DNA of 64,000 bases from Acidimicrobiales bacterium (GTDB lineage: Bacteria > Actinomycetota > Acidimicrobiia > Acidimicrobiales > CATQHL01), in contig OZ220687.1 in assembly GCA_965116465.1 (NCBI GenBank), positions 2,436,596 through 2,500,595 of the forward strand, in the 5' to 3' direction. Position 1 is the first letter of the stretch, and every line of letters begins with the position of its first letter. Positions 4,910 through 46,070 of this stretch are shown here, piece by piece. The translations under genes were made by a program, and so were the position numbers. The notes under the pieces are model-generated. The model saw only the letters and a list, made by a program, of their open reading frames with translations. It was not told the DNA's origin and did no database searches.

Positions 4910-5629
4910 ATGAGTGATGCGCCCGCGAACGCCGACTACGACGACGCCGACGATCTGGACCTGTCGAGTCTGAACGACGAAGAACTCTGCGTCCAGATGC
5001 ACGACGATCTCTACGACGGCTTAGCCGACGAGATCGCCGAGGGAACCAACATCCTGCTCGACCGGGGCTGGTCGGCCGACAAGGTCCTCAACGACGCCCT
5101 CGTGGAGGGAATGCGCATCGTCGGCATCGACTTCCGCGACGGCATCCTCTTCGTGCCCGAGGTGCTGCTGGCCGCCAACGCCATGAAGGCCGGCATGGCC
5201 ATCCTGCGACCGCTGCTGGCCGAGACCGGGGCCGAGCCGATCGGCAGCGTCGTCATCGGCACTGTCAAGGGGGACATCCACGACATCGGCAAGAACCTCG
5301 TGGCCATGATGTTGGAGGGAGCCGGGTTCGAGGTGTTCAACCTGGGCATCAACACCGACGTCGAGGAGTTCCTGGCGGCCCTCGACGAGCACAAGCCCGA
5401 CATCCTGGGCATGTCCGCCCTGCTCACGACCACGATGCCGTACATGAAGGTCGTCATCGACACGCTCGTCGAGAAGGGTCGCCGGCAGGAGGTCATCATC
5501 CTCGTCGGCGGCGCGCCTCTCAACGAGGAGTTCGGAGCGGCGATCGGCGCCGACGCCTACTGCCGCGACGCGGCCGTCGCCGCGGAGACCGCAACGAAGC
5601 TCGTGACGGCGCGCCGCGCCGCCGGGTGA
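4910..5629 (+). CDS. Cobalamin-binding corrinoid methyl-carrier protein (MttC/MtgC-like)
   Basis: 239 aa. Helical cap plus B12-binding Rossmann domain with the DxHxxG signature (GTVKGDIHDIGKNLVAMML), MSALLTTTMPYMK and IILVGGAPLNEEF. Confidence 0.9.
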   Translation: MSDAPANADYDDADDLDLSSLNDEELCVQMHDDLYDGLADEIAEGTNILLDRGWSADKVLNDALVEGMRIVGIDFRDGILFVPEVLLAANAMKAGMAILRPLLAETGAEPIGSVVIGTVKGDIHDIGKNLVAMMLEGAGFEVFNLGINTDVEEFLAALDEHKPDILGMSALLTTTMPYMKVVIDTLVEKGRRQEVIILVGGAPLNEEFGAAIGADAYCRDAAVAAETATKLVTARRAAG

Positions 5630-5639
5630 CGGGGCGACG

Positions 5640-6269
5640 ATGACCCGGCGCGGGGCACCGGCGCCGGCGCGGGATCGGGTTCTGGTCATCGCCTGCGGGG
5701 CCCTGGCCCGCGAACTCGGCGCGATCACCGCCTCACTGGACGGGCTGGACTTCGAGTGCCTGCCGGCCCGCCTGCACAACCGCCCCGAGCAGATCCCCGA
5801 GGCGGTGCGCCGACGTGTGCGCGCGGCCCGCGGCGCCTACGACACGATCCTCGTGGGTTACATGGACTGCGGCACTGGCGGCCTCCTGGACAGGGTTTGT
5901 ACCGAGGAGGGCGTGGAGCGGCTTCCCGGCGCCCACTGCTACGAGTTGTACGCGGGCTCGGAAGTCTTCGCCGGATTGCAGGAGGCGGAGCCGGGGACCT
6001 TCTATCTGACCGACTATCTGGTCCGGCACTTCGACCGGCTGATCCTGGGGGGACTCGGCATAGCCGACCACCCCGAACTGCGTGATCTCTACTTCGGCCA
6101 TTACACGCGGGTGGTGCATCTCGTGCAGGACCCCGATGCCGCCCTGGATGCCGCGGCGCGCACCGCCGCGGAGAGCCTGGGTCTGCGCTACGAGCGGATT
6201 GTGGTGGGTTACGGCGGGTTGGCCGAGCCGCTGCAGGCCCGGCGACGTCTCGCCGTGCGGGCGGCCTGA
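5640..6269 (+). CDS. DUF1638-like protein associated with corrinoid methyltransferase operons
   Basis: 209 aa with RVLVIACGALARELGAI, VGYMDCGTGGLLD and GTFYLTDYLVRHFD. Family assignment from memory; operon context fits. Confidence 0.6.
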   Translation: MTRRGAPAPARDRVLVIACGALARELGAITASLDGLDFECLPARLHNRPEQIPEAVRRRVRAARGAYDTILVGYMDCGTGGLLDRVCTEEGVERLPGAHCYELYAGSEVFAGLQEAEPGTFYLTDYLVRHFDRLILGGLGIADHPELRDLYFGHYTRVVHLVQDPDAALDAAARTAAESLGLRYERIVVGYGGLAEPLQARRRLAVRAA

Positions 6270-9824: not shown

Positions 9825-9896
9825 ATGCCCCGATGGCGAGGGCCCGGATACCAAAGTTCGAACGGGTACGGACCGGACAGCGAGACAGGTGAACCG

Positions 9897-11432
9897 ATGA
9901 GCGAGCCACGAAGACGCAGAGGCGGCGGGCGGGCCGCCCGCCAGGCGGCGCATGCCGCCACCGAGGCGGTCGTTGCGCCCTACCTGGAACGCAGTGGACC
10001 ACCGGTTGAGATCCTCGACACCGAGGGCCTCGTGCGCATCGAGGAGGCGGCGGAGACGCTTCTGGCCGAGGTGGGCATTGCCTTCCAGGAGTTCCCGTCG
10101 GCGCTGGAGTTGTGGCGGGAGGCCGGCGCCGACGTCGACGGGGAGTTGGTGCGCTTCCCCCGCGGGCTCTGCCGGAAGATCGTGCAGGAGAACGCCCCGG
10201 CGGTCTACACCCAGCACGCCCGCAACCCGGCCCGCAGCGTGAAGATCGGCGCCAACGCCACGGTGTTCGTCCCCAACTACGGCTCCCCCTTCGTGACCGA
10301 CCTGGACCGCGGCCGCCGCTACGCCACCCTGGAGGACTTCCACAACACCGTGAAGCTCACCTACGCCCTCCCGCACCTGCACCACAGCGGCGGCACGGTG
10401 TGCGAGCCCGTGGATGTGCCGGTCAACAAGCGGCACCTCGACATGGTGTACGCGCACCTGCGCTACAGCGACAAGCCGTTCATGGGGTCGGTGACCGCCG
10501 CCGAGCGGGCCGCCGACTCCGTGGAAATGGCCCGCATCGCCTTCGGCGGCGACCTGGCCGACCGCACGGTCATGACCTCGCTGATCAACGCCTCCTCGCC
10601 GATGCGCTGGGACGCCACCATGCTGGGGGCCGCCACGACCTATGCCCGGGCCAACCAGGCCTGCGTGATCAGCCCGTTCATCCTGGCCGGGGCGATGTCG
10701 CCGGTGACCGTGGCGGGCCTGTCGGCCCAGGCCCTGGCCGAGGCGCTTTCGGGCATGGCCTACCTGCAGCTGGTGCGCCCCGGTGCCCCGGTGGTCTTCG
10801 GAACCTTCGCCTCCACCATGTCGATGGCCAGCGGTGCGCCCACCTTCGGCACGCCCGAGGCCGGCCAGGCCATCTACGTCATGGCGGCCCTGGCCCGGCG
10901 GGTGGGGGTGCCGTTCCGCTCCGGCGGCCAGTTCACCTCCTCCAAGGCCCCCGACGCCCAGGCCGCCTACGAGTCGGCGCACACGTTGCTGCCCACGCTG
11001 CAGGCGGGGGTGAACTTCGTGCTGCACGCCGCCGGCTGGCTGGAGGGCGGGCTGGCGCTGTCGTATGAGAAGCTGATCTTGGACGCCGACCAGCTCGGCG
11101 CCATGGAGGTGTACGCCCGCGGCGTGGATGTCTCCGACAACGGCTTGGCCCTCGAGGCGTTCCGCAGCAACGCCCACGGCGACCACTTCCTGGGCAACCC
11201 GCACACGCTGGCCAACTTCGAGACCGCCTTCTGGCGCTCCGAGCTGGCCGACCACAACAGCTACGAGCAGTGGTCCGAGGAGGGTGGCCTCACCGCAGCC
11301 CAGCGCGCCAACGCCCGCTGGAAGCAGATGCTGGCCGACTACGAGCCGCCCCCCGTCGACGACGCCATCGACGCCGAACTCCAGGACTACGTCGCCCGCC
11401 GCAAAGCCGAAATGCCCGACGAAATCGGCTGA
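9897..11432 (+). CDS. MttB-superfamily methyltransferase, non-pyrrolysine, paralogue 2 (strongly diverged from paralogue 1)
   Basis: ATG 9897, in frame with track ORF 9825. RRRRGGGRAARQAA N-terminus, EILDTEGLVRIEEAAETLLAEVGIAF and KLILDADQLGAMEVY. No in-frame TAG. Confidence 0.85.
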   Translation: MSEPRRRRGGGRAARQAAHAATEAVVAPYLERSGPPVEILDTEGLVRIEEAAETLLAEVGIAFQEFPSALELWREAGADVDGELVRFPRGLCRKIVQENAPAVYTQHARNPARSVKIGANATVFVPNYGSPFVTDLDRGRRYATLEDFHNTVKLTYALPHLHHSGGTVCEPVDVPVNKRHLDMVYAHLRYSDKPFMGSVTAAERAADSVEMARIAFGGDLADRTVMTSLINASSPMRWDATMLGAATTYARANQACVISPFILAGAMSPVTVAGLSAQALAEALSGMAYLQLVRPGAPVVFGTFASTMSMASGAPTFGTPEAGQAIYVMAALARRVGVPFRSGGQFTSSKAPDAQAAYESAHTLLPTLQAGVNFVLHAAGWLEGGLALSYEKLILDADQLGAMEVYARGVDVSDNGLALEAFRSNAHGDHFLGNPHTLANFETAFWRSELADHNSYEQWSEEGGLTAAQRANARWKQMLADYEPPPVDDAIDAELQDYVARRKAEMPDEIG

Positions 11433-11452
11433 TCAGCGCCCGAATTCTCGAT

Positions 11453-11479
11453 CGTCATTCCGGCGAAGGCCGGAATCCA
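11453..11479. repeat. REP-like hairpin (ATTCCGGC-GAAG-GCCGGAAT, 11457-11476), second copy
   Basis: 27/27 identical to 7719-7745. Lies 21 nt after the mttB-2 stop and contains the hicB stop codon on the opposite strand. Confidence 0.9.
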
Positions 11480-11901
11480 TCCCGCTCCGCCGCTGGCGCG
11501 GCGGTTACGTGCAAGCGCCGCCCGATCGCTTCTAGGGCGGCGTCCATCTGGTCCAGGCGCGAGTGGTGCGTCACGTCCAGGACGCGATCCACCTGCGGCA
11601 TGTGCCAGCCCAGTCGGCGGGCAAGTTCCGCCTTGCCGACACCTTGGGAGCGCATGCCCTGGTAGAGCTGCACCTTGACGGAGGTGAGAGTCGGAAGGAC
11701 CGCATAGGCCGCGCCTCTCGATGGCAGCGGGATGTCCTTGCGATCGTGGATGCGGGCGGCGATCGCCTCCTCGAGTGCATTCGTCGCGCGGGCGATGGCC
11801 TCCTCGCGGTTCTCCCCGAAGGTGGTCAGTTCGGGGAAGTCGGGGGACGTCGCCAGAACAGAGCCGTCGTCATCTTCGAGCACGATCGGATAGGCGAGCA
11901 T
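11455..11901 (-). CDS. hicB: HicB-family antitoxin
   Basis: 148 aa. MLAYPIVLEDDDGSVLATSPDFPELTTFGENREEAIARATNALEEAI (HicB fold) plus C-terminal HTH GKAELARRLGWHMPQVDRVL. Its ATG overlaps the hicA stop (TGATG). Only the 3' third of the 423-aa track ORF is real. Confidence 0.8.
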   Translation of the reverse strand: MLAYPIVLEDDDGSVLATSPDFPELTTFGENREEAIARATNALEEAIAARIHDRKDIPLPSRGAAYAVLPTLTSVKVQLYQGMRSQGVGKAELARRLGWHMPQVDRVLDVTHHSRLDQMDAALEAIGRRLHVTAAPAAERDGFRPSPE

Positions 11902-12100: not shown

Positions 12101-13720
12101 CTATACAACACTTGTGTTGTGTTCACTGATTCTCCGACCTCGCCCTGCGATCGGCTTTGCGGCGGGGGTCGGGAGGGGTGGTTGGTGGCATGGCCCGGGG
12201 GCCTGTGCGGGGTGGGTGTCGGGCCTGGTCGGAGCGATGGTTTCGTGGGGGCGGGGTCGGTGGTGGTTGTGCGGCGGTGGGCGCGTGACTCCGTTGCTGT
12301 CACCGCCGCTGCTGCCTCCGCCGCCGTCGCTGCTGCCTCCGCCGCCGTCGCTGCTGCCTCCGCCGCCGTCGCTGCTGCCTCCGCCGCCGTCGCGGTCGCC
12401 GCTGCCGGTGGTGGTGTTGGTTGGGGGTGTGAGGGTGAGGTGGCCGTTGGGGTGGCGGGTGACCTGTTCGCCGTGGAGGTGGACGCGGATGTGGTGGCAG
12501 CGCCAGCAGAGGAGGCAGGTGTTCTCGAGGGTGGTTTCGCCGCCGTGGGCCCAGTGGTTGCGGTGGTGGACTTCGCAGATGTTGTGGTGGGTTCGGCAGC
12601 CGATGCAGCCGCCGTCGCGGGCGATGAGGCGTTTGCGGTGTCGGGGGGAGACTTTGCGTTGTGCGCGGCCCAGGAGTGGGGTGCCGGTGTGTTTGTTGAA
12701 GATGCCTGGGAGGATTTTGGCGTCACACGCCAGCGCCAACGTTTCGGCTTCGGTGAGGTGGGTGCCGTCGGCGAGGCGGGCGTTGGTGATGGCGTCGCGG
12801 GTTTGGTCGTAGTCGGCCAGGACCAACAGTTCGACGCCGCCGGGCGCGCCGGCGCCGGCGCTGTCGCTGTTGCTGGTGGTGATCAGCTCGGTGAGCGCGT
12901 CCGCGAACCGCTGCGGCGCCGTCGGACGGTCTTTGGGGTCCTCTGAGCGGAACATCTGGTCGGACTTGGCGATGAGCGCGGCTTGGACTCGCGCGCCGGT
13001 GAGGGGGTCGAGTTGGGCGAAGAGGTGGAACATGCCGTCGCCCTGTTCTCTGATCGAAGCGCGGCGCCGGCGCCGCTGTTGTTCCCGGCGGGCTTCGAGC
13101 TCGGCCTCGCTGGTGCGCTCATTCACGTGGTCCTTGAGCGTGCGGCGGAACTGATCCTCGGGCTCCTCCTCAGCAGCCGCGAGCAGCTCCCGCTGATCCA
13201 CCGGCCCCTCGGCGTCGAGAATCAACCCCGCGGCCTCCGGAGTGATCGCACCGTCGGCGAGTTTCTCGGCCACGTTCGGGGCCCACTCCAGTTGCGCCGC
13301 GACCTTGACGGCCTTGCGAGCGCCCCGCCGGGACCGCTTCTGGGTGCGCCGCAGCGTCTCCTCGGCAGCGGCGTCGCCTTCCCGGCGGGAGATCTCCGCG
13401 ACCACGTCGGCTTCGGCGGCGACCAAACAGGCCCGCGCCCGGCCCATGAACGCCAGCCGTTCCTGCAGCACTTCCAGGTCCACCTTGTGCAACAGCGGCG
13501 GCGGCGACGCCAGCCACTCACCCAGCACAGCCCACTCGCGGACCCGCGCCGAACCCGGCTCGTCGCGGCCCACCGCAACGGCGCCGCACGACGGAGAAAG
13601 CACAGCACCGCTATCGGCGCGGCTCGATCCGGAAAGCACAGCACCGCCATCGGCGCCGGTCGGCTCGGAAGCCGCAGCGCCGGATCCGAGCGACTCGGTG
13701 CGCTTCGCATCGCCGTCCAT
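12101..13720 (-). CDS. DUF222 / HNH endonuclease (actinobacterial REP13E12-type)
   Basis: HNH motif DGGCIGCRTHHNICEVHHRNHWAHGGETTLENTCLLCWRCHHIRVH. Start set at ATG 13720 (GAGGGGG about 10 nt upstream); the track start 13888 is possible. The C-terminus carries GGGGSSD x4. Confidence 0.8.
   Translation of the reverse strand: MDGDAKRTESLGSGAAASEPTGADGGAVLSGSSRADSGAVLSPSCGAVAVGRDEPGSARVREWAVLGEWLASPPPLLHKVDLEVLQERLAFMGRARACLVAAEADVVAEISRREGDAAAEETLRRTQKRSRRGARKAVKVAAQLEWAPNVAEKLADGAITPEAAGLILDAEGPVDQRELLAAAEEEPEDQFRRTLKDHVNERTSEAELEARREQQRRRRRASIREQGDGMFHLFAQLDPLTGARVQAALIAKSDQMFRSEDPKDRPTAPQRFADALTELITTSNSDSAGAGAPGGVELLVLADYDQTRDAITNARLADGTHLTEAETLALACDAKILPGIFNKHTGTPLLGRAQRKVSPRHRKRLIARDGGCIGCRTHHNICEVHHRNHWAHGGETTLENTCLLCWRCHHIRVHLHGEQVTRHPNGHLTLTPPTNTTTGSGDRDGGGGSSDGGGGSSDGGGGSSDGGGGSSGGDSNGVTRPPPHNHHRPRPHETIAPTRPDTHPAQAPGPCHQPPLPTPAAKPIAGRGRRISEHNTSVV
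12308..12391. repeat. Four perfect 21-nt tandem units GCTGCTGCCTCCGCCGCCGTC inside the HNH gene (encode GGGGSSD x4)
   Basis: Read directly. In frame (21 = 7 codons). Confidence 0.95.
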
Positions 13721-13947
13721 GTGTCCATCACCCCCTCGTGCAAGCTTCCCGGCCCACCCGCCCGGTGGACCTTCCTGATTGCTTCTTCTCATAATATAGT
13801 CGGTATAAGACAGAATATCAACACTAGTTCGAACATTGGCCGAAGTGAGAGGAAGCCGGCCCGGAGTCTCGGCCCGCAGAGCCATCAAACCCCCAGGTCA
13901 GCGGGCTGCATTGGTTCCAGTCGAGCACCCCACCCGAGCGGCAGCCA

Positions 13948-13967
13948 GATGTGACCAAGGTCACATC
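13948..13967. repeat. Perfect palindrome GATGTGACC-AA-GGTCACATC in the AT-rich region upstream of the DUF222/HNH gene
   Basis: Read directly. Function (operator or recombination site) unknown. Confidence 0.6.
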
Positions 13968-13993
13968 TCAATTACACATCGCCGGCCGAGCAC

Positions 13994-14066
13994 CGACGCC
14001 ATCGACGCGGAACTGCGCGACTACGTCGCCCGCCGCGAGGCCGAAATGCCCGACGAGATCGGCCGA
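13994..14066 (+). pseudogene. Diverged duplicate of the last 73 nt of mttB paralogue 2 (gene 3'-end remnant)
   Basis: Aligns without gaps to 11360-11432, with 65/73 identical by my count. Encodes DAIDAELRDYVARREAEMPDEIG versus DAIDAELQDYVARRKAEMPDEIG; the stop TGA is changed to CGA. Followed at 14117-14134 by half of the REP element (CCGACATTCCGGCGAATG). Confidence 0.75.
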
Positions 14067-14223
14067 GGTACCCAACCGCTCGTCTTGTTGGTCGTCTCGC
14101 TCCCCGTCACCCCTCTCCGACATTCCGGCGAATGCCTGCACCCGAGCGGATCGACGGGGAGCCACTCATGCCACTCTGCCCAACTCGGACCCCCTGGCCG
14201 AGAGGTACGCCTATATTGCGTTC

Positions 14224-14454
14224 ATGCCGAATGTCCAGGTGCGGAACGTCTCGCCAGCGATTCACGAAGCGCTGGTGCGCCGCGCGGCGCTGGCTGGGCA
14301 ATCGTTGCAGCAGTATCTGACGGAGCAGTTGGCTCGGATCGCAGCCAGTCCCACGCTCGACGAGGTTCTAGACCGAATTGACGGCCAGAGCCTGGGCACG
14401 CTCGCCGTCGCGGAGGCAGTGGGCGCACTCGAAGCCGAACGTGCAAGTCGTTGA
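14224..14454 (+). CDS. Ribbon-helix-helix antitoxin (FitA/VapB-like)
   Basis: 76 aa. MPNVQVRNVSPAIHEALVRRAALAGQSLQQYLTEQL is a typical Arc/MetJ-type antitoxin N-terminus. The rest of track ORF 13951-14454 is read-through of the mttB remnant. Confidence 0.7.
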   Translation: MPNVQVRNVSPAIHEALVRRAALAGQSLQQYLTEQLARIAASPTLDEVLDRIDGQSLGTLAVAEAVGALEAERASR

Positions 14455-14485
14455 CGCCTCAGTCGTGGCACCCGCAATGGCGTAA
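14441..14485 (+). pseudogene. Probable 14-codon stump of a PIN-domain (VapC-like) toxin
   Basis: GTG 14441 overlaps the antitoxin 3' end as in vapBC operons. It encodes VQVVDASVVAPAMA then TAA. VxDASVV matches the first PIN acidic-residue strand. Confidence 0.35.
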
Positions 14486-14563
14486 GGGGGTTACGGTCTG
14501 GGCTGTGGACGCCTAGGGCTCCTGAGCCTCAGTATGGCGGTCGGTTAGTAGGTTGGCGTATAG

Positions 14564-14809
14564 CTAGCCAGGTGGGGGGTAGGGGTCATTCCCGGGCTTG
14601 ACGGTGATCCCTTCCCGGATCCGACCATCAGTTCCGTGCACGCGGACCTCGCCACCACCTTGATTCCGAAGTATCTGCTTGGCGGCTTCAATCGCTTCCC
14701 TTTGCGTGGCATGGATCGAACTGGCTCGAGTGGACTTCGGCGCCTTGACTGCCCAGCCGTCAGGCTGTCGAGCAACGTGCCTACTCTTCGGCCTTGATGC
14801 CATTGTCAT
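14564..14809 (-). CDS. DUF2188-like small protein
   Basis: QPDGWAVKAPKSTRASSIHATQREAIEAAKQIL ... EVRVHGTDGRIREG. Start chosen at MTMASR (14809); track start 14857 is possible. Confidence 0.6.
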   Translation of the reverse strand: MTMASRPKSRHVARQPDGWAVKAPKSTRASSIHATQREAIEAAKQILRNQGGGEVRVHGTDGRIREGITVKPGNDPYPPPG

Positions 14810-14984
14810 CCTCCTCTTCGCTCGTGGATTCGTCTGTGTCTTTGAGTGGCTCTTCAAGGATCACTGGCCCTTCGTTCAAGATAATCACTGTGCAGTTGTA
14901 GTACACGGGGTGAACGTGCACCTCGCGTTTCCGTGAGAACATCCGGCCCAACAGGGCGAGGATTGGAGCGAGCCATTCAGGCAC
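14781..14984 (-). CDS. Hypothetical 67-aa protein (hydrophobic N-terminus, acidic C-terminus)
   Basis: ORF only. Overlaps the start of the DUF2188 gene by 29 nt in another frame. AT-richer than its surroundings. Confidence 0.3.
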   Translation of the reverse strand: MPEWLAPILALLGRMFSRKREVHVHPVYYNCTVIILNEGPVILEEPLKDTDESTSEEEDDNGIKAEE

Positions 14985-15069
14985 AATCGTTCCTCGGCGA
15001 CTGACGAGCCATGAGGCAAGCGTATTCTCCGCAGGTGTCGGGAGGTTCCGGGGTGGACGCGGTCGTCAG

Positions 15070-15183
15070 GAGCAGGCGTCGTTCGATCGCTTGCCGGGCG
15101 GCGTCCATCCGGTCGATGCGCGAGAGATGCCCTATGCCCAGGACGCGGTCCACTTGCTGTGCCTGCCAGCCGAGTTGACAGGC
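15070..15183 (-). pseudogene. Remnant of a second HicB-type antitoxin (C-terminal HTH part only)
   Basis: ACQLGWQAQQVDRVLGIGHLSRIDRMDAARQAIERRLL parallels hicB RRLGWHMPQVDRVLDVTHHSRLDQMDAALEAIGRRLH. No HicB N-terminal domain and no hicA partner upstream. Confidence 0.5.
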
Positions 15184-15359
15184 ACATTGCGCGGGCGCTG
15201 GGCCGGCAGAGGCGATAATCGGGGCGTGATGCCCCGAGCCGCTCCAGGGATCCGTCGCGGAGCGACAACTTCCGAGCCCGGAACGTCGCACATGATGTTT
15301 CAAGATATTACAGTATACAAGGACTTCCCCCAGACGCCATTCGTCTTGAAGGGGGAGCT

Positions 15360-18300
15360 ATGTCTGCAGTTGCGGCGGTCGGTCGGCGACGGGTCAGGTT
15401 CCGGGCTGTGAACGCTGTCGAGTTGCTCGAGCGGCTGGTGTCGTACGGAGTGGCCAGGGAAGTCGTTGCGCCGCGAGGGGTGACCCGCGCGGTGAGTGTC
15501 AATCAGATCGAGGTGGCGATCGCCATCGACGGACGGGAGGGCAACCTGCGTGCGCGGTGGCGGGAGCGGGTTGGGACCAGCGGTCTCGCCTATCTGCTCG
15601 TCAGCGACGATTCCGATTGCCCAGGGAGCGTGCGGGTGCTTGGCCCGAGCGCCGTCGAGGTGCCGGTCCGGTCGGTCGACTGCGCTCGGTTGGCGGACGT
15701 ACTCGAGTCGGTCCCCAACATGACCTCCCTTGATGCCGTCCGTCATGTGGCGGGTGAAGTGGATCGGCTCGCCGGCCGGGGGATGGTTGTCGAGGGCTTG
15801 CTGAGCCGCCACACCCTGGAGGATCGCTTCCGCAATGACGCTGACCGCTGGCGGGCAGCCACCGCAACCGTTGAATCGCTGCGCATCAGCGATGACTGGC
15901 GCTTGGTCCTGGTCGAGGTCGGGTATGAGGTGGAGCAGTTGCCTCAGCGCGGCTGGCTCGCCCGTCACGATGGCCGGCCCGTAGCAATTGTCCATCCCAG
16001 AGCGACGCCGCAGGACTTTGTGCGATTGGACGAGGCGGGCCGACCCGCCGAGGGGGTGCTCGCCGCCGACTGTCACAGGTACGGCGCCCGCTATGGCGTT
16101 CTGGCCTGTAAGAACCGCTACCGGCTATTCGACTGCGACCCCTCGGCCACAACGGCGGAGTGGCTGGATCTGGACGCTGCCCTACTCGGCGAGGAGCGAA
16201 GGCCGTATCTGGCCCTGCTAGCGCCCCCGTACTTGGCCGAAGGCGGCCTAGCGGAGTTGCAACAGGAATCCCGGGACTTCGGCGCGAGCCTGCGCCGCCG
16301 GCTCGATGAGACCATTCGCCAGAAGGCGCTGCCTGCGCTAGCCACAGGACTCGAACAGTGGGCCTGCCGCGAGAGCATCGACATTCGGGGCGAGACCCAG
16401 CGTGCCGAACTGGAACAGGCCTCGCTCACCCTCTTGTTCCGGCTGCTGTTCGTTCTCTACGCCGAGAGTTCACGCTTCCTGCCGATCGAGAACGAGACCT
16501 ACCGCCGCAGGTCACTCTCTGCTCTCATCGAGGAGGCGTACAGCACCGGAGAGCAACTGAGTGATGAGTCGACAGCGCTGTGGTCAACGTTCGCCACCCT
16601 CGTGCGCGCACTGCGTTCCGGCAACCCCGCCTGGGGCGTGCCCGCCTACAACGGAGCGCTCTTCGCGGCTGGCGACTTCGAGGGCGCCGAACTGCTTGAG
16701 CGTGTCGAACTGAGCGATCCGTACTTCGCGAGCGTGCTCGTTGCGGTCGGACGCGATGGCGAGACCGGACGGGGAGTGGACTACTCCTCCCTGGAGATCG
16801 GCCACCTCGGTCACATCTACGAGGCTCTGCTGAGCCTCCGGCTCTCAGTCGCCGATCGTCCTCTGCGCTACGACGTAGGCGAGGATCGGTACGTGCCGGT
16901 GAACGGCGCGGCGCCGTCGGATGTCGTCGAGGGTTCGCTGCTCTGGCAGACCAACGAGGGCGGGCGAAAGTCGGGTGGCGTCTACTACACGCCTGTCTCG
17001 CTAGTACGCCACCTGGTGCGTCACGCTGTCCTACCCGCCTACGAGCGGCACCTCGATGGCGTGCGCGAAACCGCCAAGACCGACCCGAAGCGTGCGGCAC
17101 AAGACCTGATGGACTTCACAGTGCTCGACCCAGCCTGTGGAAGCGCTCACTTCCTGGTCCAGGTGCTGGAGGCACTCGCAGACAGAGCGGTGAGTTTCCT
17201 GGCCGACACCCCCCTGCCGGCGATCCGTGAGTCGCTCGACAGGCTGCGGTCCCAAGCACAGAGCGGTGCTGTGGTCACCGACGTAGCACTGCTGCGCCGG
17301 CTGATCCTCAAGCACTGCGTGTTCGGGGTGGATCTCAGTCCCATGGGTGCCGAGGTCGCCACTCTGTCTCTCTGGTTGGCGTCGTTCGTGCCGGGTCTCT
17401 CCCTGGCCTATCTCGGGCGCAACATTCTTGTGGGGAATTCGCTGATCGGGGTAGGTAGTGCGGGCTCGGTCGTCCGGGAGGGCACGTGGCCAGCGGAGGC
17501 GTTGCGGAGCGCTCTGGCCGAGGCGTCCGAGGCTGCGGCCAGGCTTGCGGGTATTGACGACCGGACACCCTGGGAGGTCGATGCCAGCCGGGAGGCCGAT
17601 ATCGAGGCTCAGAAGGCGACGGCGGGTCTACAGCGACTCTTCGACTTGTGGATTGCCGACGGGTTCGGTGTGAACGGGGCCCGAGGGCTCGCCGAGACGG
17701 ACGGACCGGCAGTAATTGCTGGAACGAACGGTGACAACGGCGAGAGGCTTGTGAAGCGAGCCGCGGCACTTGCCGCCGAGCACCGATTCCTGCATTGGCC
17801 GCTGGCGTTCCCGCAGGTGTTTGCCGGCAAATCGCGTGGCTTCGATGTCGTGGTCGGCAACCCGCCCTGGGAGGAGGTGAAGGTCGAGCAGTTGGGGTTC
17901 TACCTATTGCATCGGCCTGGGATTCAGGGCTTGCCCCAAGCTGAGCGCGATGCTTTGATCGCTGATCTCGCGACAGAGAGACCCGAGTTGCTGCGAGCGC
18001 TGGAGACAGAGCAGCAGCAGGCAGCAGCTTGGCGCGCTGCTGCCGCGACCGGTGAGTACGAGCAGACGGCCGGTGATCCCGACCTGTACAAGTACTTCTG
18101 TCAGCGCTATCGCCTCCTTGTTCGGGACGGCGGAGCGATCGGTGTCGTCCTGCCACGGACCGCGTTCGTGAACAAGGGGTCGGAGGGCTTCCGTGACTGG
18201 CTCTACACGAGAACCAGCGCGCAGCGTGTCGACTTCTTGGTGAACCGGAACAAGTGGATATTCGACACCCATCCCCAATATGGGATTGCGTTGGTAGTGA

Positions 18301-19304
18301 GTCGGAATCGGAGGCCTGCTGAAGGTCATCGCGTGGTGATCGCTGGGCCAGCTGATTCCTCAGGAGCGTGGCTAGACCAGTCCTCGACTCATGGCGTAGC
18401 TGCAGCACCGTCCTCGTTCCCATCTGGTTGGATCACGCCCAAGCTGCGTTCCGAGGCCGAGGCTGACCTCCTCGGTAAGTTCCGAACAGGATCGAGGTTC
18501 CCTCGCGGTTCGTCCGGGAGATGGTGTTGTTTCCCCGTCCGGGAACTCGACGAGAAGAACGACAAGAAGCTGTGGCTCGGTGCCGATGAGGGCCGCCCCC
18601 TGTGGAAGGGCGAGAGCTTCGACCAATTCGATCCTCATGGCGCCGAGCGTCGCCTGTGCCCGCTCAATGATCGAGTCTGGAAGAAAATCCGAAAGCCGCG
18701 TCCGGGTTCAGAGTCGCTCTTGGCCTCGTCCATCAGCTTGAATGACCGCCGTCAAGCGGTTCTCGGTGAGTTGGAGACAGCCAGAGTGGCATACCGCGCG
18801 GTGTCCAGGTCGTCCGGTGACAGTCGGACAGTCCGTGCTTGCCTGATTCCGCCAGACGTGTTCCTGGTGAATTCGGCCCCATACCTTGCCTTCGTCACCG
18901 GTGGCGAACAGGATCGAGCAGCGTGTCTCGGCATCATGAACAGCCTGGCGTTCGACTGGCAGGCTCGTCGCATCATTGAGGCCAATGTCAACTACTTCAT
19001 CCTCGAGGCACTCACGGTGCCCGATCTCGACGACGGCGCGTTGTCCGAGGTGGCTCGAGCGTCGGCTCGACTCTCCGCAGTCGACGACCGCTTCGCCACG
19101 TTCGCCACTGCTGCCGGCGTCGCATGCGGGCCGTTGTCCGAGGACGAACGCCAACGACTCCGAGTGGAGATCGACGCCCGAGTCGCTCACGCCTGGCGGC
19201 TCAGGGAGGCCGATCTGGTGGTCATGTTCGCCGACTTCACGACCGACGCTGTGCCGCCGACGTACCGCTCGGCCCTCTTCGACCGCCTCGCTGAGTTGAG
19301 TTGA
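15360..19304 (+). CDS. Large gamma-class N6-adenine DNA methyltransferase (Eco57I/type IIG/PglX-like) with a ~330-aa N-terminal extension and C-terminal specificity region
   Basis: 1314 aa. GGVYYTPVSLVRHLV, SAM motif VLDPACGSAHFLVQVLEAL, catalytic FDVVVGNPPWEEVKVEQ and TRD-like CLGIMNSLAFDWQARRII. Purine-rich GAAGGGGGAG immediately upstream. Confidence 0.85.
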   Translation: MSAVAAVGRRRVRFRAVNAVELLERLVSYGVAREVVAPRGVTRAVSVNQIEVAIAIDGREGNLRARWRERVGTSGLAYLLVSDDSDCPGSVRVLGPSAVEVPVRSVDCARLADVLESVPNMTSLDAVRHVAGEVDRLAGRGMVVEGLLSRHTLEDRFRNDADRWRAATATVESLRISDDWRLVLVEVGYEVEQLPQRGWLARHDGRPVAIVHPRATPQDFVRLDEAGRPAEGVLAADCHRYGARYGVLACKNRYRLFDCDPSATTAEWLDLDAALLGEERRPYLALLAPPYLAEGGLAELQQESRDFGASLRRRLDETIRQKALPALATGLEQWACRESIDIRGETQRAELEQASLTLLFRLLFVLYAESSRFLPIENETYRRRSLSALIEEAYSTGEQLSDESTALWSTFATLVRALRSGNPAWGVPAYNGALFAAGDFEGAELLERVELSDPYFASVLVAVGRDGETGRGVDYSSLEIGHLGHIYEALLSLRLSVADRPLRYDVGEDRYVPVNGAAPSDVVEGSLLWQTNEGGRKSGGVYYTPVSLVRHLVRHAVLPAYERHLDGVRETAKTDPKRAAQDLMDFTVLDPACGSAHFLVQVLEALADRAVSFLADTPLPAIRESLDRLRSQAQSGAVVTDVALLRRLILKHCVFGVDLSPMGAEVATLSLWLASFVPGLSLAYLGRNILVGNSLIGVGSAGSVVREGTWPAEALRSALAEASEAAARLAGIDDRTPWEVDASREADIEAQKATAGLQRLFDLWIADGFGVNGARGLAETDGPAVIAGTNGDNGERLVKRAAALAAEHRFLHWPLAFPQVFAGKSRGFDVVVGNPPWEEVKVEQLGFYLLHRPGIQGLPQAERDALIADLATERPELLRALETEQQQAAAWRAAAATGEYEQTAGDPDLYKYFCQRYRLLVRDGGAIGVVLPRTAFVNKGSEGFRDWLYTRTSAQRVDFLVNRNKWIFDTHPQYGIALVVSRNRRPAEGHRVVIAGPADSSGAWLDQSSTHGVAAAPSSFPSGWITPKLRSEAEADLLGKFRTGSRFPRGSSGRWCCFPVRELDEKNDKKLWLGADEGRPLWKGESFDQFDPHGAERRLCPLNDRVWKKIRKPRPGSESLLASSISLNDRRQAVLGELETARVAYRAVSRSSGDSRTVRACLIPPDVFLVNSAPYLAFVTGGEQDRAACLGIMNSLAFDWQARRIIEANVNYFILEALTVPDLDDGALSEVARASARLSAVDDRFATFATAAGVACGPLSEDERQRLRVEIDARVAHAWRLREADLVVMFADFTTDAVPPTYRSALFDRLAELS

Positions 19305-22300
19305 TGCCCGGACGTCCGTACCTTCTCGACAATCGGGGAGACGACACGCGCCATGCCGACGCCCTGTCGTACCTCCTCGACGACCTCGTGTCGAGCCATG
19401 AGTTGTCGGTCGCTACCGGATACGTCAATCTGGGCGGCCTCCACTACCTGGCGACTGCGGTGGCAGACGGGAGGAGAGTGCGGGTGTTGCTCGGTGTGGC
19501 ACCCGGACCGGGTCTGGGCGGACAGCCGCCGGCGCCTCAGTTCAATCTGGCTCTCGAGGGTTTGCGCGAAGACCGCGACATAGCGCGGTTCCCGCCGAGC
19601 CGGGCCGCGAAGCGGCTCGTGCAACTCGACGACTGGCTGCAGCGCCCCGAGGTGGAGGTGCGCCGCTATACGCGTCGGTTCCTCCACGGCAAGGCGTACC
19701 TGTTCGGTGACCGAGACGATGCCCGGGCTGCACTAGTCACCTCGGCCAACCTCACGAGGGCCGGGTTGTTCGAGAACCTGGAACTGGGACTCGTGCAGTA
19801 CGACCCGCCCGTGGCGGCCCGGGCCGTGGCCTGGTTCGACGAACTGTGGGACGAGGCCGCAGAGTTCAAGGACGAACTAAGGGACCTTCTCTTCCCCGAC
19901 ATCGGACTCGTGAACCCCCGCGAGGTGTACCTCCGTGCGTTGCTCGAGCTGCTTGGCCCGACTATCGACGCGCCTCACGGCGCCGAGACGACCGCTGTGG
20001 AGTTGGCGCCGTTCCAGCGAGACGGGCTGCACCGCGCACTCCGGATCCTTGAGGAACACCACGGCGTGATCTACGCCGACGGCGTCGGCACGGGCAAGAC
20101 CGAGATCGGCTTGGCGCTCGTCGAGGAATACGTGCTGCGGCGAGGTCATCACGCGCTCGTTGTTGCGCCGGCCCAACTCGTGAACTACTGGGAGGATCGG
20201 CTCAACCAGGTGCGGCTCTCCGCCCAAGTGGTCAGCTATCACCAACTCGCCGGCGACGAACAACTCGCCGAGCCCAGCGCATCGAACGTACGGCGCCATC
20301 TGCACAACGACAAGGACGCCTTCCGGCTGGTTGTCGTGGACGAGGGTCACGCTCTGCGCACGCCTGACACCACCTGGTACCGAGCGGTGGCACGACTCCT
20401 CGGCGGCACGCGGAAGGACTTGGTGCTGCTTTCTGCCACCCCAATTAACAACAGCCTGTGGGATCTATACAACCTCGTCATGGCCTTTGCGCGCCACGAC
20501 AGGGCGTTCGCGGCCAAGGGCATACGGTCGCTGCGGCGTCTCTTCGTACGGGCGGGGGCCAACGAACGCGATCCGGAGAATCTCGATCCCGACGTGCTGT
20601 TCCCGCTCGCTGACATGGTGAGCGTGCGGCGGGACCGGAGACTCATCGAACGCAACTACCCCAACACGACGTTTCCCGACGGCACGCTCGTGACGTTCCC
20701 GACACCGTCGCTTTCCACCGAGCGCTACGACCTCGACGAGGCCTACCCCGGGTTGGTTCGGGAGATCACGGCGTCGATCGGCGCCCTCACGATGGCTCGC
20801 TACCGGCCAAGCGCCTACGGCCTCGACGGAGAAGAGTTGAGCAGGGAGTCGAGCCTGGGAGCGCTGCTGCAGTCGGCGATCCTGAAGCGTTTCGAGTCGT
20901 GCTGGCAGGCCTGCCTACTGACCGTCCAGCGGATGATCGCAGCCCACGAGGTGTTTCTGGTCGCTTGGGACTCAGGCCAGGTGCTAAGCGGGCAGGCGCT
21001 TCGGGACGCGGCCGCAGAGGATCTTGATGAGACCGCCCTCGCTGGCTGGATTGCCGAAGCCTTGGACGAGGCCGACATCGAGCCGGTTGAGGACTTTCGT
21101 CCCGAGTACCGGGACGATGTTGCCGCTGATCTGTCCCGGCTGAAGGCAGCGAGAGACTCGCTGCGCAGTCTTCGCGCCGAGGACGACCCCAAACTCGACT
21201 TGCTGCGTCGACTGCTCGAGGCCATCCCGTCGGAGAAAGTCGTTGTGTTCTCCTCCTTCGCCGACACCGTGCGTTATCTCGACGAACACCTGCCGGACAT
21301 GATGAATGGCCGCGAACGGGTCACGGTGATCGGAGCCGAGACCAACCCTGACGAGCGCACCAAGATGCTGGCCCGCTTCTGCCCGGAGACAGTGGTGCGG
21401 CCCGGCTACGAGCCGCCCGACGGTGAGGTGGACCTGTTGTTGAGCAACGACGTTCTCTCCGAGGGCCAGAACCTGCAGCAGGCCGCAGCCGTCATCAGTT
21501 ACGACATGCCGTGGAACCCACAGCGGGTCGTGCAGCGCTATGGCCGCGTCATCCGGCTGAAGAGTCCGCACGAGCGCGTCTTGTTGCGCACGATGCTTCC
21601 GGACGAGGGTGACCTGGAGTTAATCCTGCAGCTCGAGACCGCCATCCGCCGCAAGATCGTGGCCGCTCGCCCGTACGGGATGGAGGTCGACGTGATCGAA
21701 GGCGATGTCGAGGAGGAGATCCGCGCCTACGCCGGCCGCCTCGCCGCGAGTGATGCGTCTCTGCTCGACGAAAGTGATCCATCTTCTGGTGTGCAGGCGC
21801 TCAGCGCCGAGGTCTTGCGTGCCGAACTGCGACGAGCTGCCTCGGAGGGTGAGGTCGACCGCGTCGCCGACCTACCGTGGGGTGTCGGCGCCGTCTTCGC
21901 ACAAGGCAGCGGGGTGCCCTCGACCGGCCCTCCGGGGATCTTCTTCGCCTGCCGCACCCGCCACGGCGACCGCTACTGGCGCTACGTCACGGCCGACGGG
22001 GGTACCACATCGGCCGAGGCCACGATCCTGCGTCGGATAGATCCAGGGTTTGCTCCTGGCGTGTCTTCCCCAACGATCGACCTGGAAGGGGCATGGCAGA
22101 CTGCAGCGGCCTCCATCCTTGAGGAGCACAACGAGGCGGCGATATCTGCAGCAGACGGAATGCCAGTAGGACGGATCCAGCAGTGGGCCAGGCGATTGCT
22201 TACCGAGCCCCAGATCGCCACGTCAGCCGAAGCGGCTGATGCCTACGACGTGCTCGGAGTCGAGCGAGGCGCCACCGTGCGTCAAGCCCTCGGCGTGGTC

Positions 22301-22468
22301 AGACGAGACCTGGACGCGGAGACGATCGATCCAGTCGAAGCCGCTCGACGAATCGTCGGCGTCGTCGCCTTCTACGGGCTGAGCAAGGTCGACCCTCCGG
22401 AACCCGTCCTCCCAATCACCGAGGAAGATATCGGAGTCGTCTGCTGGATGGCTGTACTGTCCAAGTAG
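19304..22468 (+). CDS. Phospholipase-D-family nuclease domain fused to an SNF2/SF2 helicase
   Basis: ATG 19304 shares its A with the upstream TGA (TGATG); the track uses TTG 19301. Single HKD module RRFLHGKAYLFGDRDDARAALVTSANLTRAGLFEN. Helicase motifs VIYADGVGTGKTEIGLAL, FRLVVVDEGHALRTP, DLVLLSATPINNSLWDL, LLLSNDVLSEGQNLQQ and YDMPWNPQRVVQRYGRVIRLKS. Confidence 0.85.
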   Translation: MPGRPYLLDNRGDDTRHADALSYLLDDLVSSHELSVATGYVNLGGLHYLATAVADGRRVRVLLGVAPGPGLGGQPPAPQFNLALEGLREDRDIARFPPSRAAKRLVQLDDWLQRPEVEVRRYTRRFLHGKAYLFGDRDDARAALVTSANLTRAGLFENLELGLVQYDPPVAARAVAWFDELWDEAAEFKDELRDLLFPDIGLVNPREVYLRALLELLGPTIDAPHGAETTAVELAPFQRDGLHRALRILEEHHGVIYADGVGTGKTEIGLALVEEYVLRRGHHALVVAPAQLVNYWEDRLNQVRLSAQVVSYHQLAGDEQLAEPSASNVRRHLHNDKDAFRLVVVDEGHALRTPDTTWYRAVARLLGGTRKDLVLLSATPINNSLWDLYNLVMAFARHDRAFAAKGIRSLRRLFVRAGANERDPENLDPDVLFPLADMVSVRRDRRLIERNYPNTTFPDGTLVTFPTPSLSTERYDLDEAYPGLVREITASIGALTMARYRPSAYGLDGEELSRESSLGALLQSAILKRFESCWQACLLTVQRMIAAHEVFLVAWDSGQVLSGQALRDAAAEDLDETALAGWIAEALDEADIEPVEDFRPEYRDDVAADLSRLKAARDSLRSLRAEDDPKLDLLRRLLEAIPSEKVVVFSSFADTVRYLDEHLPDMMNGRERVTVIGAETNPDERTKMLARFCPETVVRPGYEPPDGEVDLLLSNDVLSEGQNLQQAAAVISYDMPWNPQRVVQRYGRVIRLKSPHERVLLRTMLPDEGDLELILQLETAIRRKIVAARPYGMEVDVIEGDVEEEIRAYAGRLAASDASLLDESDPSSGVQALSAEVLRAELRRAASEGEVDRVADLPWGVGAVFAQGSGVPSTGPPGIFFACRTRHGDRYWRYVTADGGTTSAEATILRRIDPGFAPGVSSPTIDLEGAWQTAAASILEEHNEAAISAADGMPVGRIQQWARRLLTEPQIATSAEAADAYDVLGVERGATVRQALGVVRRDLDAETIDPVEAARRIVGVVAFYGLSKVDPPEPVLPITEEDIGVVCWMAVLSK

Positions 22469-22550
22469 TGCTCAACTCGCTTGCCGAGAGCGTTACCTGC
22501 GAGGCGTCATAACGCCTTGTCGCTACAGTGAGATGTCCTAGTATTGTGCC

Positions 22551-23621
22551 GTGACCGCCGCCGATTTCGAACCGCCATCTGTCCTCTCATTCAGTGAGGC
22601 TTACAGTGCAGCTACGAGAACCGACGCGCAATCCGGAGGTCCATCAAGGCTGCCACACTTACTGCTCGGGAATGGGTTCTCGCTCGCCTGTCAGCCACAG
22701 ACTTTTGCCTACAGTTCACTATTCGACCAGGCAGACTTCGGGGATTATTCACCCACAGTACGGGCAGTATTTGATGAGTTCAACACGAGGGACTTTGAGC
22801 GAGTTGTCAATCTGATTCAATCGTCGGAGAAGATCATAAGCGTACTTGAGACTACGGACGGGGCGTTGGTGGAGTGCCTCCGAGAGATTGCGCAAGCGAT
22901 TCGTGATGGGCTAGTCGCTGTATTGACAGATGTACACCCGGGGAGTCAGAGCGATATCTCGGCTGACTATTACGAATCGGCGCATACGTTTCTCTCCAAG
23001 TTCAGCCGAATCTTTACGCTAAACTACGATCTTCTCTTGTACTGGACGATTGTTAGCCACCTGAAGAAGCACTACAGGAAAGATGGGTTCTCGATAACTA
23101 GCGGGTCATATCGGCTTTGGGATCCGTCTGCGTCCTCAGTGGACTTCTACTTTCTCCATGGTGCGTTGCACCTCTACAACACGGAGGGTAGCGTTGGTAA
23201 GACTACGTGGGCTGACACGGGAGTCCAGTTGGTGGAACAGACTCGCCAAGGATTAGACGACGGCAGGTTCCCCTTAGTCGTTACGGAAGGGACCAGTAAG
23301 GATAAGAAAGAGAAGATCCATAGCAACCGTTACTTGTCTCGCGCAATTGATGAGTTCTCGAAGCTCGAGGGGGCGTTATTCATATATGGATTCTCGATGT
23401 CAGACAACGATCAGCATATCCTAGATCGGATAGTTCGAGGACGGTTAGCTAGAGTATTCGTGAGTATCTATGGTGAGCCTGAATCTGACAACAGAGCTAG
23501 ATCGATCGAGAAGGGGGAGAGATTGGCTGCTCAGAGGTGCCAGAGTAGTCCTAATGGACCTCCGCTCGAGATATGTTTCTATGAGGCGGGGACTGCCCAC
23601 ATCTGGCATACCGATGGCTGA
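22551..23621 (+). CDS. DUF4917 / SIR2-like protein
   Basis: GTG start, 356 aa. PHLLLGNGFSLACQP (Gly-rich NAD loop), RIFTLNYDLLLYWTI, FYFLHGALHLYN and LFIYGFSMSDNDQHILD follow the SIR2_2-type motif order. Visibly AT-richer codons than neighbours. Confidence 0.65.
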   Translation: MTAADFEPPSVLSFSEAYSAATRTDAQSGGPSRLPHLLLGNGFSLACQPQTFAYSSLFDQADFGDYSPTVRAVFDEFNTRDFERVVNLIQSSEKIISVLETTDGALVECLREIAQAIRDGLVAVLTDVHPGSQSDISADYYESAHTFLSKFSRIFTLNYDLLLYWTIVSHLKKHYRKDGFSITSGSYRLWDPSASSVDFYFLHGALHLYNTEGSVGKTTWADTGVQLVEQTRQGLDDGRFPLVVTEGTSKDKKEKIHSNRYLSRAIDEFSKLEGALFIYGFSMSDNDQHILDRIVRGRLARVFVSIYGEPESDNRARSIEKGERLAAQRCQSSPNGPPLEICFYEAGTAHIWHTDG

Positions 23622-42124: not shown

Positions 42125-42131
42125 CTTTCTG

Positions 42132-43946: not shown

Positions 43947-44049
43947 TGATCCACTCCACCCGGGCGTCGGTGCTGACTGATCGTCCTTCGAGCATGTTCA
44001 GTATCTCACGCCCACCCAGTGGAGGGGCGACGAGCCGGTTCCTGGCCGG

Positions 44050-45930: not shown

Positions 45931-46070
45931 GATCCCCCCTTTCGATTCGACTGCGGCGAGTTTGCGCAAGATAGGTCCCGGAGCCGGCTGGCCGCAGTGC
46001 GCCCGATGCTAGTGAGCAGCCTTGTTACGTGCCGGTCGAGAGGGCGCCGCAGGAGCCTGAGGGTGCGGCG

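Follow-up and report, generated by a model that had tools for sequence, protein, structure and literature searches.

A conserved gene pair encoding a Type IIG-like methyltransferase and a PLD-SNF2 protein as a candidate ATP-dependent restriction-modification module in an Acidimicrobiales genome

Two overlapping genes in a 64,000-nucleotide (nt) stretch of an Acidimicrobiales bacterium genome (assembly GCA_965116465.1, contig OZ220687.1, positions 2,436,596 to 2,500,595; hereafter, the window) encode a large N6-adenine DNA methyltransferase (MT) and a protein that fuses a phospholipase D (PLD) nuclease domain to a SNF2 ATPase (PS). We propose that MT and PS constitute a two-subunit, ATP-dependent defence module resembling restriction-modification (RM) systems, and we assign this reading a probability of about 0.6. 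We see roughly even odds that the pair stands for an unrecognised and widespread class of ATP-dependent RM enzymes, built from a nuclease-less, Type IIG-derived, Mod-like MT and a Res-like PLD-SNF2 subunit and switched by DNA repeats in several symbiont lineages, and that many existing "Type IIG" annotations are wrong. The proposal draws on the linkage of the two genes, on a base composition that they share and that differs from that of the flanking genes, on the conservation of their catalytic residues, and on a defence context, namely a DUF4917 gene (PDC-S21) adjoining the pair in the window and defence-type or mobile genes inserted between MT and PS in some other loci.

An initial annotation of this DNA had described three open reading frames (ORFs), several catalytic motifs, a TGATG overlap between the first two genes and an 82-nt gap before the third. 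All were found where they had been placed, and Pfam agreed with the proposed domain assignments (N6A methylase, PLD plus SNF2, and DUF4917/SIR2-like). The stop codon TGA of MT (19302-19304) overlaps the start codon ATG of PS (19304-19306), reading ...TTGATGCC. The features of the second gene are as follows.

19304..22468, + strand: PS, single-HKD PLD nuclease fused to a SNF2 ATPase, 1054 amino acids (aa) from the ATG (Pfam, PADLOC, NCBIfam, alignment, fold search)
19302..19306, + strand: MT/PS stop-start overlap TGATG (translational coupling)
19439..19849, + strand: PLD (HKD) nuclease domain of PS, aa 46-182, with H128-x-K130 at 19685-19693 and S147 and N149 inside TSAN
19991..20533, + strand: SNF2 N-lobe of PS, aa 230-410, with the Walker A motif GVGTGKT at 20081-20101 and DEGH at 20339-20350
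21191..21598, + strand: helicase C-lobe of PS with motif VI QRYGRVIRL, aa 630-765 (Pfam, alignment, RapA)
21671..22465, + strand: C-terminal domain of PS, aa 790-1054, conserved in the family, no known fold assigned (alignment)

Both halves of PS were recognised by profile searches. The PLD region matched PLDc_2 with 38.4 bits (cut-off 27) over aa 46-182 and fell just short of RE_NgoFVII (23.6 bits, cut-off 23.8), while the motor matched SNF2-rel_dom (43.8 bits, cut-off 24.9, aa 238-392) and Helicase_C (61.7 bits, cut-off 23.5, aa 630-752). The motifs are HGKAYLF (aa 128-134), TSANLT (146-151), GVGTGKT (260-266), DEGH (346-349), SATP (377-380) and QRYGRVIRLKS (744-754). PS therefore combines the features that define the SNF2 family (SNF2-rel_dom and Helicase_C with motifs I, II, III and VI) with the HxK...(G/T)SxN signature of the PLD superfamily. 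By sequence and fold searches, the motor belongs to the SNF2 family and is close to the Sulfolobus SNF2 core, RapA, Ino80 and Chd1, the nearest solved structure by sequence being the Sulfolobus SNF2 core 1z63. H128, K130, S147, N149, Walker A, DEGH, motif III and motif VI are invariant in the PS family and kept in distant homologues; the persistence of the four PLD residues from the family of the window to archaeal homologues argues for a working nuclease. With one HKD copy per chain, the PLD domain of PS would have to dimerise.

The distribution of PS was examined by a genome scan in which one genome per species was retained, giving 80 loci, many of them from sponge symbionts. A homologue of MT, including its N-terminal 330 aa, adjoins PS in 79 of the 80, mostly directly 5', and the sole locus lacking it has just 116 nt of DNA 5' of PS. 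MT typically ends 3-20 nt before the PS start, and it lies on the opposite strand in two loci. The 80 loci span at least six phyla (Acidimicrobiia, Longimicrobiales/Gemmatimonadota, Solirubrobacterales/Gaiellales, Acidobacteriota, Gammaproteobacteria, Dehalococcoidia, Dormiibacterota and Mycobacteriales). More than 1,200 relatives of PS were found, the best 120 of which are all at least 62% identical over the full length; a search of viral contigs yielded none. Clustering of all ORFs in the flanks of the 80 loci revealed no conserved third gene. These results, which bear out the methylase linkage anticipated in the initial annotation, establish MT and PS as a conserved, translationally coupled two-gene unit.

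More divergent pairs occur on plasmids of M. gallinarum, R. erythropolis, Euzebya pacifica and the archaeon Halorubrum lacusprofundi, where a "hypothetical protein" of 1321-1375 aa with NPPW and DxAMGSGHF motifs (29-32% identical to MT over nearly its full length) is followed by a "helicase-related protein" of 1118-1165 aa (32-36% identical to PS). A pair on a P. aurescens (Paenarthrobacter) plasmid was assigned on gene order and sizes, which fit MT-PS, and not on detailed sequence comparison. Remoter PLD-SNF2 genes (27-30% identity) accompany different, NPPY-type methylases in Planktothrix, Deinococcus, R. pyridinivorans (with the gene order reversed) and H. volcanii.

In about 20 loci, variable DNA separates MT from PS, and the junction behaves as an insertion hotspot. 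The inserted genes are of defence or mobile type and encode Schlafen/AlbA_2-HATPase_c_4-Fic_C, DUF5131, AAA_21, DUF2326 and YhgA-like transposase proteins; inserts were located at 8299-9924 in locus L044, 1741-2994 in L038, 6879-9863 in L045 and 7662-8903 in L031. One Solirubrobacterales genome, STL-ACT46, carries two MT-PS copies on separate contigs (L061 and L062), one with a frameshifted MT. Another methylase plus SNF2 arrangement was seen at 6479-15507 of L090, the E. coli plasmid pHH194M-140K, as a cluster of genes for an SNF2-related protein, DUF4391, a site-specific DNA methyltransferase and a DEAD/DEAH helicase; about a dozen Enterobacteriaceae plasmids carry this distant SNF2 relative, and L090 is the one that was inspected for the four-gene cluster.

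The features of MT and of the DNA preceding it are as follows.

15293..15359, + strand: AT-rich stretch 5' of MT with a Shine-Dalgarno sequence GGGGGAG (4 nt before the ATG), possible promoter region (read from the sequence)
15360..19304, + strand: MT, gamma-class N6-adenine DNA methyltransferase of Type IIG-like architecture, 1314 aa (Pfam, PADLOC and NCBIfam profiles)
15408..16229, + strand: N-terminal tandem alpha/beta domains, aa 17-290, restriction-enzyme-like fold, predicted non-catalytic, family-specific (AlphaFold2, Foldseek)
16245..16919, + strand: MmeI-like helical spacer, aa 296-520, all-helical in the model, weak MmeI_hel match (E 0.0011)
16947..17879, + strand: methyltransferase core, aa 530-840, with motif I DPACGSAHF at 17127-17153 and motif IV NPPW at 17859-17870
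17880..19301, + strand: target-recognition and C-terminal region, aa 841-1314 (TIGR02987 and Eco57I C-terminal matches)
18504-18575, + strand: site equivalent to the repeat hotspot of homologues, aa 1049-1072 (repeat mapping)

A consensus promoter scan around the module returned nothing significant. Motif I (aa 590-598) precedes motif IV (aa 834-837), and the recognition region is C-terminal, which is the order of gamma-class N6-adenine methyltransferases; both motifs are invariant among 21 homologues. Pfam matched MT to Eco57I (61.6 bits, cut-off 25.3), N6_Mtase and, weakly, MmeI_Mtase, and a search of the PDB with an MT profile gave nothing at E < 0.01. The PADLOC model of Type IIG enzymes (REase_MTase_IIG, PDLC03620) aligned with aa 265-1294 of MT over profile positions 275-1353 of 1378 (E 2.3e-118), so tools would nominally call MT "Type IIG", and aa 1-264 fall outside this alignment.

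The AlphaFold2 model of the MT N-terminus is confident (pLDDT, a score of local model confidence, 86) and shows two alpha/beta domains and, after them, a long helical region. Used uncropped as a Foldseek query, it gave weak matches to proteins with the PD-(D/E)xK fold (BpuSI, Hjc resolvase and the HsdR nuclease), the weakness being due to the multi-domain query. A Pfam scan of the N-terminal 290 aa returned no match. There are no invariant lysines in this region within the close MT family, and, once the distant plasmid homologues are included, no conserved acidic residues or lysines either; we therefore read the N-terminus as a degenerate, non-catalytic restriction-enzyme-like module, and MT is probably unable to cut DNA by itself. 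Among 1.84 billion cluster representatives, the N-terminal domain had 179 matches, all at protein N-termini, the full-length ones being about 1305-1354 aa long; the domain is family-specific and confined to MT-like proteins. In L080, an additional partial copy of it (aa 9-288) lies at 5005-5883, just 5' of an intact MT gene.

Stand-alone PLD-helicase restriction enzymes such as SauUSI exist, and MT could in principle be a self-contained Type IIG enzyme, with PS acting independently or as an accessory, for example as a Type IV-like PLD-helicase. MT does share with Type IIG/IIL enzymes (MmeI, BpuSI, Eco57I and Cj0031) the order of N-terminal domain, helical spacer, gamma-class methylase and C-terminal recognition region, and the match to PDLC03620, the MmeI-like spacer and the weak restriction-enzyme-like fold matches all speak for such an enzyme. 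We nevertheless consider this explanation improbable. Type IIG enzymes are single-chain and ATP-free, whereas the partner gene of MT encodes a nuclease and an ATP motor; no active endonuclease domain, the hallmark of Type IIG enzymes, was recognised within the MT chain by profile, Pfam or residue conservation, and the region beyond the PADLOC model is the one that lacks conserved catalytic residues. In addition, MT and PS strictly co-occur and are translationally coupled, a PS that depended on modified DNA would turn on the genome that its own partner had methylated, and MT is frequently switched off with PS left intact.

This last point emerged from a comparison of gene integrity. Of 64 complete MT copies, 15 carried a frameshift, truncation or interruption; for PS, the figure was 2 of 76 (Fisher p 1.7e-4). 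Non-triplet simple-sequence repeats, twelve in all, were present inside the MT coding sequence of 10 loci, and PS had none (binomial p 6e-4). They comprise poly-G/C tracts of 10-52 nt, (AG)18, (TC)14, (CCCA)16 and (CCAG)30, and are concentrated in the C-terminal third of MT, where the site matching aa 1049-1072 is a hotspot. These 10 loci belong to Gemmatimonadota, Acidimicrobiia, Acidobacteriota and Gammaproteobacteria and come from short-read-style (NODE/k141) and chromosome-level (OZ/OY) assemblies alike. The repeat is in frame within a full-length MT in L020, L040 and L045 and out of frame in L019, L023, L027, L037, L056 and L072. The MT of the window is intact and repeat-free, and neither inverted repeats nor a shufflon was found in its recognition region. 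In three loci (L020 at 9084, L023 at 9025 and L027 at 6831), a segment of about 20 codons comes after the repeat in two tandem copies, which have diverged and lie in differing frames; the repeat length therefore selects either full-length MT or a form truncated about 35-65 aa past the repeat, and repeat and tandem copies together may act as a built-in two-state switch of MT.

Type III mod genes are known phase-variable contingency genes, and the repeats in MT carry the signature of such genes, which indicates that MT is phase-variable in these lineages. A Type IIG precedent is the gene Cj0031, which is phase-variable through a poly-G tract (PMC4889913). That PS persists intact when MT is off implies that PS does no harm in the absence of MT, and hence that MT would provide recognition or licensing, the part played by Mod towards Res. 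The same repeats, through their resemblance to those of mod genes and Cj0031, could be taken to mean that the pair is a phasevarion or a DNA-repair/recombination module in which a phase-variable MT alters gene expression and PS acts on chromosomal DNA, and the stable synteny of the pair in Acidimicrobiia would fit such a role. A phasevarion could do without a nuclease-motor partner, but PS is conserved and has remained intact; the family is also spread over phyla and plasmids, and defence genes lie inside or beside the module. We thus regard this explanation as very unlikely.

Under the RM-like reading that we prefer, MT would be a Type IIG-derived protein that carries target recognition and methylates adenine in host sites, which are probably asymmetric. 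Its N-terminal restriction-enzyme-like domains would have lost their catalytic residues, so that MT would not cut DNA itself, and cutting would be supplied by PS through its SNF2 double-stranded-DNA translocase and single-HKD PLD nuclease. At unmethylated sites, MT would recruit or license PS, which would then translocate along DNA at the expense of ATP; cleavage would follow when two PLD domains pair into one active site, because one HKD motif amounts to half of a PLD active site. PS would rely on MT in the way that Res relies on Mod (Type III systems) or HsdR on HsdM/S (Type I systems), and in some lineages the whole system would be switched by the simple-sequence repeats in MT. The methylation-guarded, ATP-driven PLD restriction module suggested by the initial annotation is, judged from sequence, the best reading of the linkage and of the invariant catalytic residues.

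The pair was compared with the systems that share its parts. Like class 1 DISARM, it has an SNF2 helicase, a large gamma-class N6A methylase and a PLD nuclease, and the PADLOC models of DrmMI, DrmD and DrmC all match; it differs in having PLD and SNF2 in one protein and in lacking the DrmA/DrmB (DUF1998) core, which was found neither within 10 kb, nor among the large ORFs scanned, nor as a conserved neighbour in the 80 loci. Scores against the NCBIfam DISARM models are far below cut-off (117.6 versus 610 bits for DrmD, NF038317; 36.8 versus 133 for DrmC, NF038319), and the DrmMI models cover the methylase core of MT alone. The BREX cores PglZ and BrxC were likewise absent beside the module, among the scanned ORFs and among conserved neighbours of the 80 loci, and matches of MT to PglX are weak in PADLOC and NCBIfam (29 bits for NF033452, cut-off 500). 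The initial annotation had stated that these cores are missing from the whole window; this held beside the module and among the ORFs scanned, which were part of those in the window, and, as a correction, an HmaA-type SNF2 helicase-nuclease gene lies at 53387-57004.

Type-2 BREX-related (BR) systems are predicted to be RM-like and are centred on a DUF499 AAA+ ATPase, with DUF3780 in 98% of them (Rakesh & Krishnan 2026, PMC12839542). Compared by architecture alone, these Hma-like systems resemble the pair in combining an N6-adenine methylase with an effector in which an N-terminal HKD nuclease precedes a Swi2/Snf2 helicase. They differ in that DUF499 and DUF3780 are unmatched within 10 kb of the module and are not conserved neighbours in the 80 loci. 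MT also lacks a match to HmaB-type models, and PS matches HmaA in the helicase C-lobe alone (E 3e-24). Judged by gene content, the module is not DISARM, BREX or Type-2 BR, because the core genes of these systems are absent. The PADLOC entry "C3a139 HKD+Snf2" was considered as a description of the same pair and rejected, since it is a type III CRISPR accessory family (PMC6546367).

Some affinity with these systems exists, and the pair could act by BREX- or DISARM-like exclusion, in which MT marks self and PS, with MT, stops invading DNA from replicating or remodels it, with no classical double-strand cleavage tied to sites, MT perhaps needing PS to methylate. The methylase core of MT resembles DrmMI (E 3e-66) and, weakly, PglX, and PS resembles DrmD, BrxHII and DrmC. 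The H. volcanii methylase HVO_A0079, whose partner PLD-helicase gene is truncated and directly followed by an IS4 transposase gene in the plasmid record, shows no methylation, which recalls the dependence of PglX on other BREX proteins. However, H, K, S and N of the PLD domain show no variation out to archaeal homologues, and the BREX and DISARM core partners are missing; we consider exclusion unlikely.

In function, the RM-like reading brings the pair closest to Type III and Type ISP enzymes (EcoP15I; LlaGI/LlaBIII), by analogy with which a methylase-recognition unit would be joined to a superfamily 2 (SF2) motor-nuclease and the methylase would presumably be needed for restriction. Phase variation is likewise a trait of Type III mod genes, and cleavage by the pair, as in Type III systems, would probably need two enzymes to meet. 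Membership in these types could not be detected at the sequence level, with a PLD nuclease, an SNF2 motor and a gamma-class MT: the nucleases of Res and Type ISP enzymes are PD-(D/E)xK or Mrr and their motors are not SNF2, Mod is beta-class, and Type ISP enzymes are single polypeptides. The initial annotation had likewise noted that Type III Res subunits have PD-(D/E)xK and not PLD nucleases. SauUSI and the R and N proteins of CglI/NgoAVII share with PS a single-HKD PLD nuclease and an SF2 ATPase and, as proposed for PS, cleave in an ATP-dependent way that requires PLD dimerisation. SauUSI differs in being modification-dependent and acting alone, CglI/NgoAVII in having a C5 methylase, separate R and N proteins and a B3-like DNA-binding domain, and both lack an SNF2 motor and a Type IIG-like methylase partner.

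In the literature searched, the strictly two-gene MT-PS family was neither named nor tested, and combinations of a methylase with PLD-SNF2 received passing mentions; Cj0031-like Type IIG genes beside a PLD/SNF gene, for instance, are mentioned by Milman et al. (PMC9881135). The claim that the genes fit no named system therefore holds for the two-gene family as such and has to be qualified by the match of MT to PDLC03620 and by the related methylase plus HKD-Snf2 combinations already published (PMC12839542, PMC9881135), which are known as computational descriptions.

Several observations weigh against the RM-like reading. HVO_A0079, a more distant relative that was labelled "Type IIG" and whose N-terminus has no similarity to nucleases, gave no detectable methylation in H. 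volcanii (PMC5867850). The restriction-enzyme-like fold of the MT N-terminus was recovered with weak Foldseek scores (E 0.04-0.5), and the region might harbour a non-canonical active site. The AlphaFold2 model of PS, built from a 12-sequence alignment, is poor (pLDDT 56), with low confidence at the C-terminal domain, and Foldseek recovered the SNF2 core alone from it; the C-terminal 265 aa had no match in a Pfam scan, which leaves this domain without an assignment. Part of the MT frameshifts could come from assembly errors or plain decay and not from phase variation. Finally, the pair occupies the same site (MTTB 5', GFA/IclR 3') in at least seven other Acidimicrobiia loci at about 69% nucleotide identity, and such chromosomal stability is unusual for a defence gene.

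If the proposal is correct, MT and PS would add to the restriction enzymes one with a mechanism of its own: the nuclease would be of the metal-independent PLD type, with an SNF2 motor to drive it and a Type IIG-like methylase as its guide. The module would occupy a place between Type IIG, Type III/ISP and DISARM, and it suggests a way in which classical restriction-modification could have parts in common with DISARM-like and BREX-related systems. Recurrent annotations would also be corrected, MT ("Type IIG" or "hypothetical protein") becoming half of a two-subunit enzyme of which PS ("helicase-related protein") is the other. The repeats, in turn, point to phase-variable methylation in uncultured sponge symbionts. 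Experiments are feasible, since the family is also present on plasmids of cultivable Rhodococcus, Mycobacterium, Paenarthrobacter and Halorubrum, R. erythropolis pCRE138 and P. aurescens pTC1 among them.

The third gene described in the initial annotation lies immediately downstream of the pair.

22551..23621, + strand: DUF4917/SIR2-like gene, 356 aa, 82 nt 3' of PS, an apparently independently acquired neighbour and not part of the module

It is a full-length member of its family (PF16263 DUF4917, 214 bits, cut-off 28), with a weak SIR2_2 match, and it matches the PADLOC single-gene candidate PDC-S21 (PDLC04960, E 3e-102, aa 32-353). Its motifs GNGFS (40-44), TLNYD (156-160) and FLHG (201-204) correspond to GxGxS, TxNxD and xHG, which we take to be sirtuin-type. 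The gene is AT-richer than the pair, as had been noted: its GC content is 51.6% (58% at third codon positions, GC3), compared with 65% for MT and PS (GC3 75-79%), 69-70% for the flanking core genes (GC3 85-94%) and about 68% for the window.

The initial annotation had suggested that this protein backs up MT and PS as an NAD-consuming effector, which would make a three-gene system. The gene is on the same strand as PS, with no terminator detected in between, and the same order of PS and DUF4917 is found on the metagenomic contig L093 (2-3173), where DUF4917 is 91% and PS 80% identical to the proteins of the window. In another Acidimicrobiia locus (L094, 64-7032), DUF4917 directly follows a Type I hsdM-hsdS-hsdR operon and an overlapping 91-aa ORF, and it may tend to adjoin restriction systems generally. 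However, none of the 80 loci has DUF4917; this includes L001, the closest relative, whose PS is 91% identical to that of the window and yet has no DUF4917 3' of it. Its GC content is 13 points below that of MT and PS, and its relatives (one 91% identical, the remainder at most 42%) are stand-alone proteins of about 340 aa from many phyla and varied contexts, such as beside a phage integrase on the Klebsiella-type contig L097. A back-up effector role thus has a very slim chance of being correct, and DUF4917 was rejected as a member of the module; its distribution suggests that it moved between lineages into the same spot, 82 nt past PS, and we regard it as a separate defence-island neighbour.

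The module is embedded in a cluster of C1/methylamine-metabolism genes, with a pterin-binding protein, RACo and MTTB (9825-11432) on its 5' side and MFS, GFA, IclR, ETF, dimethylglycine-oxidase-like and FTHFS genes on its 3' side; no tRNA genes that could serve as integration sites were found. Locus L001 comes from a sponge-associated Acidimicrobiia genome, and the DNA just 3' of PS is variable among the Acidimicrobiia loci that hold the pair at this site. On the 5' side, 2.95 kb of the window (12127-15079) are missing from L001 and L035, and are therefore a later insertion, flanked by duplications of the MTTB 3' end and downstream sequence (11400-11631 versus 14034-14143 and 15047-15192). The following features lie in this segment.

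12101-13888, - strand: HNH-like gene, 595 aa, holding a 21-nt tandem repeat at 12288-12407
within 13951-14454: FitA-like RHH ORF
14564-14857, - strand: DUF2188 gene

The HNH-like gene was excluded as a member of the module, as it sits in the insertion that the two closest relatives lack.

Further downstream, about 31 kb 3' of the module, the gene at 53387-57004 (+ strand) encodes the full-length HmaA-type SNF2 helicase mentioned above, with a C-terminal NOV_C/DUF3883 nuclease-like domain (PDLC00659, E = 0, 1286 bits). The ORFs past 50 kb that were listed and scanned included neither an HmaB methylase nor an HmaC/DUF499 ATPase, and the gene is either an orphan or part of a split Hma/Type-1 BR system. 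Next to it, a DUF2290 protein (57052-57738, - strand; PDLC02999, E 2e-78) adjoins a UvrD-like helicase (57746-59905, - strand; PDLC03002, E 7e-287), and the two look like the PADLOC helicase plus DUF2290 candidate defence pair. Near them are an ISL3 transposase gene (61350-62555, - strand) and a gene for an Abi_C-domain protein (62763-63623, - strand). The GC content drops to 0.61-0.67 across 51-64 kb, which points to another island of defence or mobile genes. Three tandem paralogous SBP_bac_5 solute-binding protein genes were also observed at 40262-46008 (- strand).

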